From a virus (Duplodnaviria > Heunggongvirae > Uroviricota > Caudoviricetes), in IMG/VR virus record IMGVR_UViG_2880389630_000005: DNA of 64,000 bases, one strand, 5' to 3'. A program made the translations under genes and the position numbers. Below the pieces are notes generated by a model. It was not told the DNA's origin and did not search any database. It saw only the letters and a program-made list of their open reading frames with translations. Positions 52,252-52,801 of this stretch are shown in pieces (within the stretch, counting starts at the first letter, position 1; every line of letters starts with the position of its first letter).

Positions 52252-52378
52252 AATATAATTTTTATGCATCCGTGATAATTACATCCGTCACGGATACATA
52301 AAGCTATAGCCAAAAGTGGACAAACCTTTATCTCACTCCAAACCATCTGGTATCCTGCGTAAAACTAAGGAGGTTGGT

Positions 52379-52801
52379 GTGTTTGGTATATTAACGAGAA
52401 GCAAGATAAAAAAATTAAGGGCAGAACTCGCCGAAACACAAAAACTGGCTTCACATTTTTACAAAATGAAATACGACGCTGAAGAGCGTGCATTTGTTGA
52501 GTTATGCGATTTATCTATTCGTATGGGAGTAGAGCCAGATGTAGCGGCAAAAACCCAACAAGGCATTGATATACTTGCAGATGTTGTTTTAAACAGGCAA
52601 TATGCGTTTTATCTAAACGAGAAGGCCATTCAGATTTACTCTCAAATCTTCCTCCTAGAAAAAAGAAGAGGAACTCACGATCGAGAAGAGTGGTTAAATG
52701 AAGTTGTTAAAAAATCTGGCTGGGAAGTTGTTTCATCAGAGCTACCTCTTATTTGTGCTGATTTAATCGAAGAGGCAAAAGAGCGCCTATCCGATGGCTA
52801 A
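52379..52801 (+). CDS. Hypothetical protein (third gene of accessory module)
   Basis: 140 aa from GTG 52379 with RBS aaggagg; longest ORF starts 52316; inverted repeat ATCCGTGA/TCACGGAT upstream. Confidence 0.5.
   Translation: MFGILTRSKIKKLRAELAETQKLASHFYKMKYDAEERAFVELCDLSIRMGVEPDVAAKTQQGIDILADVVLNRQYAFYLNEKAIQIYSQIFLLEKRRGTHDREEWLNEVVKKSGWEVVSSELPLICADLIEEAKERLSDG

Follow-up and report, generated by a model that had tools for sequence, protein, structure and literature searches.

The region between genes 16 and 9 of P22-like phages (immunity I, immI, or 'ant moron') is a hypervariable accessory region, and of the whole late region the ant moron alone is said to tolerate insertions (PMC2629481). 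In P22 itself, this part of the genome holds sieA, flanked by mnt/immI on one side and, in convergent orientation, by the 3' end of gene 16 on the other. SieA proteins of types A, B and C have been distinguished, and for P22 sieA an upstream region of 85 bp is enough to give complete exclusion from a single copy (Leavitt et al. 2024, PMC10883804). SieA prevents P22-like phages from injecting their DNA, escape mutations being located in gp16 and gp20; it is the sole studied occupant of the locus, and its mechanism is so far only partly understood. Two further systems invite comparison. BTP1 encodes an antisense RNA, STnc6030, that lies opposite the 3' end of an injection gene and excludes BTP1 (PMC7067206), and the gpA-portal region of P2 holds old and tin and is treated as a defence hotspot (PMC13586616). 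Here we analyse ORF140, an open reading frame (ORF) of 140 amino acids (aa) that has the position and orientation of sieA in a 64,000-nucleotide (nt) stretch of viral DNA, IMG/VR record IMGVR_UViG_2880389630_000005. This whole stretch, referred to below as the window, is Escherichia coli chromosome with a P22-like prophage, and ORF140 is located in the prophage.

When the window was compared with P22 by blastn, the two had 38 nt in common at this place (TGGTATCCTGCGTAAAACTAAGGAGGTTGGTGTGTTTG; 92% identity); the P22 sequence just before sieA reads ...CATGGTATCCTGCACAAAACTAAGGAGGTTGGTGTG. The shared block covers the Shine-Dalgarno sequence, the GTG start codon and four further bases, and among E. 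coli prophages the homology of this leader reaches about 4 nt further upstream (CATC, from 52344). A preliminary description, made from the letters of the window alone, had credited ORF140 with its own strong ribosome-binding site. AAGGAGG is a consensus sequence, but it is not the gene's own, as it is part of a leader shared by the occupants of the sieA position. In the viral contig L018 (contigs and loci are given L numbers), a stretch of 947 nt is homologous to P22 (91.6% identity). It runs from mnt across orf59a and the putative sieA promoter, PsieA, and stops 7 nt inside the sieA coding sequence, ORF140 following in place of sieA. The same replacement is seen in L008, with P22 homology over 173 nt upstream. 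ORF140 is therefore a start-codon-precise, non-homologous replacement of sieA.

The two genes thus share slot, leader, Shine-Dalgarno sequence and GTG, and their products are of comparable size (140 versus 164 aa). The proteins themselves differ. There is no sequence similarity between them (BLASTP E = 14), and the FxRYPxEAxxFNK motif of SieA is absent from ORF140. SieA is basic (isoelectric point [pI] 9.5) and hydrophobic, with three to four transmembrane helices (maximum Kyte-Doolittle score of P22 SieA 2.60, 45 windows above 1.6), whereas ORF140 is acidic (pI 5.5) and lacks a hydrophobic or transmembrane segment (maximum over 19 residues 0.75, no window above 1.6).

ORF140 is one of many genes found behind this leader. 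In E. coli genomes, two ORFs unrelated to ORF140 also stand behind this leader and start at its GTG, one of 106 aa with an N-terminal transmembrane segment (HB37) and one of 129 aa with a signal peptide (MB06171). A scan of IMG/VR for the leader returned at least 120 stretches (loci L030-L151) with at least 118 ORFs starting at the shared GTG, which, among the matches listed, fall into at least 12 unrelated families. The minimum copy numbers are 22 each for the cargo families of 129 aa and of 107/109 aa, 13 for a second 109-aa family, 11 each for a 62-aa family and SieA type A, eight each for a 75-aa family and ORF140, seven for a 106-aa family, five each for families of 149 and 116 aa, four for a 99-aa family and two for a 68-aa family. 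The other cargos share with ORF140 the leader, the GTG start and, in P22-like prophages, the position beside gene 16. They are mutually unrelated and, among the matches listed, are uncharacterised apart from SieA. In the same set, 11 of the 12 families have a predicted signal peptide or transmembrane segment, ORF140 being the only one with neither.

On the 3' side, the slot is closed by a small hairpin between the stop codons of ORF140 and the gene 16 homologue, which is kept in most ORF140 loci and after the cargo of strain KE40. In Ec15103 and L019 it reads AAGCCA/TGGCTT rather than AATCCA/TGGATT, both sides being changed and the pairing kept; the two-sided change is recorded for loci L004 and L019. 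Taken alone the hairpin is weak (z -2.0 and -0.7). We infer that cargo may be exchanged by homologous recombination with the leader and the end of gene 16 as arms; at about 38 nt, such an arm falls within the range that phage recombinases of the Red or Erf type use.

Like other morons (Villafane et al. 2008, PMC2629481), ORF140 belongs to the variable part of the genome between genes 16 and 9 that has no role in morphogenesis, and relatives that are otherwise syntenic either have it or lack it; it is an independent accessory gene of the immI/ant moron region. Prophage morons at the sieA/ant-moron locus are already a known kind. What is newly defined here is the shared-leader cargo slot with its at least 12 alternative genes, an arrangement of which we found no description in PMC10883804 or PMC2629481, the two papers that treat the locus, within an incomplete coverage of the literature. 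The features of the region are collected in Table 1.

Table 1. Features of the sieA/ant-moron region of the window, in order of position (position 1 is the first nucleotide of the window).
Feature	Position	Strand	Basis or remark
Tailspike gene	46963-49044	-	
ant	49254-50186	-	
74-aa ORF	50219-50443	-	between arc and ant
arc	50440-50661	-	
mnt	50689-50943	+	
orf239	50993-51712	+	first gene of the two-gene PIN module
PIN protein gene	51703-52251	+	overlaps orf239
Inverted repeat, 15-nt arms, 12-nt loop	52261-52302	not assigned	3'-end element of the mnt-orf239-PIN unit
sieA-type leader, 38 nt, including Shine-Dalgarno sequence and GTG	52348-52385	+	P22 comparison
TGgTATCCT, extended -10-like motif	52348-52356	+	possible promoter element, from conservation
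Shine-Dalgarno sequence AAGGAGG	52367-52373	+	5 nt before GTG; same in nearly all loci
ORF140, 140 aa	52379-52801	+	
Small hairpin AATCCA-tccg-TGGATT	52806-52821	not assigned	between the stops of ORF140 and the gene 16 homologue; 3' junction of the slot
Homologue of P22 gene 16, ejection (DNA transfer) protein	52826-54934	-	convergent neighbour, defines the slot

The 140-aa frame from GTG 52379 behind AAGGAGG, ending with the stop codon at 52799-52801, was correctly delineated in the preliminary description. The RefSeq annotation of identical copies (WP_000467047.1) takes the same start, and all homologues begin with MFG, MFD or MFK at this position; a 161-aa reading from GTG 52316 is therefore not the gene and was rejected. 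Alleles that are about 93% identical in DNA differ at 22 synonymous and six to seven non-synonymous positions, corresponding to a ratio of non-synonymous to synonymous rates (dN/dS) of 0.06-0.07. ORF140 is under strong purifying selection at the protein level and, by all indications, is a real, conserved, functional gene. It is also a rare one, being found in 29 of 5,426 complete E. coli genomes.

When 1.8 billion representatives were scanned in full with HMMER, 12 matches were obtained at E <= 0.001, ten of which are full-length proteins of 138-146 aa with 33-47% identity to ORF140. Across the whole family, identity ranges from 33 to 52%, and all named members are from Enterobacterales (Escherichia, Citrobacter, Serratia, Pantoea and Enterobacter). 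A structure prediction, which the preliminary description had called for, was run with AlphaFold2 on an alignment of homologues and gave a confident fold (predicted local distance difference test score [pLDDT] 94.6, predicted template modelling score [pTM] 0.82). In the all-helical model, residues 2-49 and 60-95 form a long hairpin of helices against which three short C-terminal helices pack. The conserved core, AAxTxxGxxILxxVVLNRQYAFYLNExAIQ at residues ~56-85, is an almost invariant helix of 30 residues with many conserved polar and aromatic positions, which may constitute a binding surface. The product of ORF140 is thus modelled as a soluble, cytoplasmic helical-bundle protein that lacks a catalytic motif.

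That the protein has no recognisable domain, as already stated from the translation, was borne out by searches of Pfam, PHROGs, PADLOC and NCBIfam, which returned only noise. The same was true of Pfam searches with all 11 aligned family members, where the best weak profile match was DUF6435 (E = 0.19, residues 1-26, one member only). An ORF140 profile found no match among PDB sequences, and tblastn found none in 50,697 GenBank phage records. Foldseek gave no match at E <= 0.001 against the PDB with a single-sequence AlphaFold2 model (pLDDT 77) and no significant match against BFVD; the matches that fold searches did return are generic helical hairpins. Membership of the ESCRT-III/PspA/Vipp1 superfamily was considered and dropped, as the Foldseek matches to it were scattered among many other helical hairpins (E ~0.35-1.4), and Pfam PspA_IM30 and Snf7 did not match either.

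Distant homologues of ORF140 (35-52% identity) adjoin gp16-type genes, again in convergent orientation, in Citrobacter and in metagenomic P22-like elements (L007 from Citrobacter, L021, L026, L027, L179, L180, L182 and probably L183); Pfam Phage_P22_gp16 was assigned to neighbours of these homologues. Such neighbourhoods speak for a long residence of the family in the slot. In L182, mnt is followed by the ORF140 homologue. In L177 (3452-4742) and L178 (1929-3219), mnt, an ORF140 homologue (39% identity) and a SieA-like gene follow one another with gaps of 19 and 9 nt, convergent with gene 16, in what is apparently an operon. The SieA-like protein of these two loci is a membrane protein of 195 aa, and the L177 copy matches P22 SieA at E = 1e-11 and contains RYPGEA, which served as a positive control. 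As a SieA-like gene stands beside the homologue in L177 and L178, the two families coexist there.

In L173, L175 and L176, the homologue is found elsewhere in the ant moron or beside the tailspike gene. In L173 (Serratia chromosome, 3963-7502) its neighbours are the tailspike gene and a hok/gef-family gene; this prophage looks rearranged, with early-region genes (YdaS-like, Kil, RecE-like) in place of the ejection genes. In L022, L025, L028 and L029, the homologue lies near a tape-measure-like, lipoprotein or Fic/DOC gene. The P2-like locus L023 (1415-8398) carries a 61-aa ORF and an ORF140 homologue (39% identity) between replication gene A (gpA) and the portal gene, and a DUF4435 protein and an AAA_15 ATPase, which together resemble the PARIS pair, are encoded convergent with the homologue. 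The gpA-portal locus of P2 is likewise variable, with rapidly exchanged prophage-expressed anti-phage genes, but it belongs to a different phage family with different flanks, and no sign of a common leader or start codon as an exchange junction was seen there. Judged by these contexts, the main home of the family is the P22-like sieA/ant-moron region; it is not confined to that region, homologues occurring outside P22-like phages too, which is a difference from SieA, and it can coexist with SieA.

The suggestion in the preliminary description that ORF140 is a separate exclusion or defence gene has two parts. The gene is separate, as it moves independently of its upstream neighbours (see below). 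What argues for exclusion or defence is position: the sieA slot, the leader and the GTG, to which the PARIS-like neighbours in L023 may be added. ORF140 shares its strand with mnt and is antisense to the late operon; late transcription therefore cannot express it. In relatives it is joined to units expressed in the lysogen, namely PsieA in L008 and L018 and mnt in L177 and L182. In the window, only two routes of transcription are left for ORF140, a putative sieA-type promoter in the leader or immediately before it and read-through from Pmnt past an inefficient hairpin; by either route the protein would be made in the lysogen. Among the parts of the leader conserved between P22 and every E. coli context, TGgTATCCT lies furthest upstream. 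Bearing on whether ORF140 has expression signals of its own, as a moron would, are its orientation opposite to the late operon, its consensus Shine-Dalgarno sequence and the sieA leader, together with TGgTATCCT, a putative promoter that the consensus scan did not call.

Once made, ORF140 would bind a phage or host protein on the cytoplasmic side and in this way protect the lysogen against superinfecting phage, acting at the conduit's exit during injection or once the DNA has entered, unlike the block that SieA imposes at the inner membrane. Every test points to a soluble, non-enzymatic protein, and binding in the cytoplasm therefore appears the likeliest mode. We give even chances to the proposition that ORF140 is a lysogen-expressed, cytoplasmic exclusion or defence protein acting by binding.

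Several observations weigh against this proposition. SieA works inside the inner membrane, and ORF140, having no membrane segment, cannot act like SieA; as the only cargo of the slot without a signal peptide or transmembrane segment among the matches listed, it may also differ from the others in purpose. The coexistence of an ORF140 homologue and a SieA homologue in L177 and L178 argues that the one is not a simple functional substitute for the other. Regarding expression, the window retains only the last 38 nt of the P22 sieA upstream region, the annotated PsieA hexamers being absent, and a consensus promoter scan of 52252-52378 on the + strand found nothing except a weak TTCAGA-N16-TAAAAT ending at 52254. 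ORF140 had no match in PADLOC-DB v2 at E <= 1, and a literature search by accession found the protein mentioned in no paper. Finally, accessory regions also hold genes unrelated to phage defence, and it is by its position that ORF140 becomes a candidate anti-phage factor.

In the main rival reading, ORF140 would be expressed from the prophage for a purpose other than defence, be it counter-defence, action as an anti-antirepressor, modulation of immI or lysogeny, or lysogenic conversion from a permissive site. A small, soluble, helical protein with no enzymatic motif is what many phage-encoded inhibitors look like; the gene belongs to the immunity I region and often follows mnt directly; its product, among the matches listed, differs in cellular location from all other slot cargos; and the ant moron, as noted above, is described as the only late-region place that tolerates insertions. 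A role of ORF140 in immI in cis is, however, made unlikely by homologues that occur without ant or mnt nearby (L026 and L027) and in P2-like and siphovirus-like contexts, and the slot's one characterised occupant serves in exclusion. On this balance, a non-defence function appears possible but rather unlikely.

We also considered whether the product could be an RNA, with transcription from the leader running into the 3' end of the convergent gene 16 and excluding phage by an antisense effect in the manner of STnc6030, the ORF being secondary. STnc6030 represents, and ORF140 as proposed here would represent, exclusion expressed in the lysogen of a P22-like prophage from a gene antisense to the late operon, STnc6030 being located at the gene 16/tailspike junction. 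The precedent of BTP1 and the hairpin after ORF140, which is weak and has no U-tract so that read-through into gene 16 is plausible, speak for such an RNA. However, STnc6030 is a non-coding RNA acting by base pairing, whereas ORF140 is a protein under strong purifying selection, which is kept down to 33% identity despite unrelated DNA flanks and different gp16 types and for which AlphaFold2 predicts a confident fold. An RNA as the sole product is therefore very unlikely; an antisense effect could exist in addition to the protein but cannot explain the ORF.

The upstream neighbours bear on yet another reading, raised in the preliminary description, by which the orf239-PIN module has ORF140 as a third component; as such it might be an antitoxin, a regulator or an adaptor. 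In the window and in 18 complete E. coli genomes, ORF140 does adjoin the module on the same strand. However, 11 further complete genomes carry ORF140 without the PIN module, in some of them with mnt directly upstream; in others an identical ORF140 stands next to gene 16 with a Panacea-domain gene (UMNK88), an XhlA-family gene (AHM8C212RI) or a P63C-domain gene (Ec15103) as its upstream neighbour. Conversely, 14 genomes have the PIN module and the identical intergenic region followed by a different ORF, as in strain KE40, where the same module and intergenic region precede an unrelated 109-aa ORF. Divergent PIN modules end in canonical terminators with no ORF140 homologue behind them, and PHROGs families exist for orf239 and the PIN protein but not for ORF140. 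The two genes are, moreover, set apart by a gap, given as about 125 bp in the preliminary description and in fact 127 bp long (52252-52378, between the PIN stop at 52251 and GTG 52379), which contains a strong hairpin (z -5.2). The co-occurrence counts largely refute a role of ORF140 as a PIN component, which we consider scarcely credible; the PIN module is a neighbour of ORF140, not its partner, and the two are separate units.

The hairpin in this gap sorts with the PIN module. The inverted repeat that had been noticed here, ATCCGTGA-N12-TCACGGAT at 52268-52295, was confirmed and proved to be the core of a longer one. The core is unique in the window and was seen in none of 100 dinucleotide shuffles; the longer repeat has arms at 52261-52275 and 52288-52302, 15 nt each, which are 93% complementary with one mismatch. 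As + strand RNA, the structure has a predicted stability of -17.0 kcal/mol (z -5.2, none of 200 shuffles as stable); as - strand RNA, in which the sole C/A mismatch becomes a G-U pair, the value is -20.1 kcal/mol (z -6.2). The repeat was found in all 32 E. coli genomes carrying the PIN module, whatever cargo is downstream, and in none of the ORF140 loci without the module, and PIN modules at 53-76% identity have a canonical GC-rich hairpin with a T-run at the same place, a few bases past the stop codon. Because the repeat is always present with the PIN module and absent without it, and because the terminators of the relatives occupy the same position, it represents the 3'-end hairpin of the mnt-orf239-PIN unit, a terminator equivalent that may be inefficient, as it lacks a U-tract on the + strand. 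Its attribution to ORF140 as an upstream feature thus does not hold, and an operator or promoter element of ORF140 was rejected as an interpretation on the same grounds, the repeat being missing wherever ORF140 occurs without the PIN module. On the - strand, which is that of the late operon, the repeat is followed by AAUUAUAUUUU; the repeat might also affect late transcription toward the tailspike gene.

The PHROGs families of orf239 and the PIN protein are of unknown function (phrog_19868 and phrog_21691). The module had no match in PADLOC, and the PIN protein had none by tblastn in 50,697 GenBank phage records. Relatives of the module at 53-76% identity occur in other viral contigs, twice within one contig (L161, L168).

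That ORF140 could be a chance frame or decaying remnant, as its lack of database annotations and its rarity in complete E. coli genomes might suggest, is a negligible prospect and is refuted by the low dN/dS, the full-length homologues in several genera, the high-confidence AlphaFold2 model and the conserved Shine-Dalgarno sequence and start.

Elsewhere in the prophage, the 74-aa ORF between arc and ant is cysteine-rich, annotated as hypothetical and kept in several related prophages. The homologue of ejection gene 20 is disrupted by an IS3-family element at 55446-56629 (flanks 54934-55458 and 56505-57461), which the matching record annotates as ISEc52. Only one complete genome, that of strain AREA_R485 (NZ_CP123349.1), has this insertion as well, the gene being intact in p11A and others. 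The prophage in the window probably no longer gives rise to infectious virions; its accessory genes are intact.

The finding of at least 12 unrelated genes behind one leader turns an orphan ORF into a member of a testable set of candidate exclusion genes. The reading of the locus is also corrected, in that the PIN module and ORF140 are separate units. As the sole soluble member of this set, ORF140 would be the likeliest candidate for a mechanism other than a block of the membrane conduit. It is present in prophages of clinically important E. coli lineages, including an O25b:H4-ST131 strain, in which any resistance encoded by prophages is of relevance to phage therapy. More tentatively, and with somewhat less than even confidence, we suggest that the sieA locus is a cassette-like slot in which a promoter/ribosome-binding site/start leader of about 38 nt and the end of gene 16 serve as fixed arms between which at least 12 unrelated exclusion or defence ORFs have been swapped with start-codon precision, and that ORF140 founds a new cytoplasmic, single-protein anti-phage family shared by P22-like, P2-like and siphovirus-type prophages of Enterobacterales. 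If this is true, the slot would provide a ready-made catalogue of candidate superinfection-exclusion genes.

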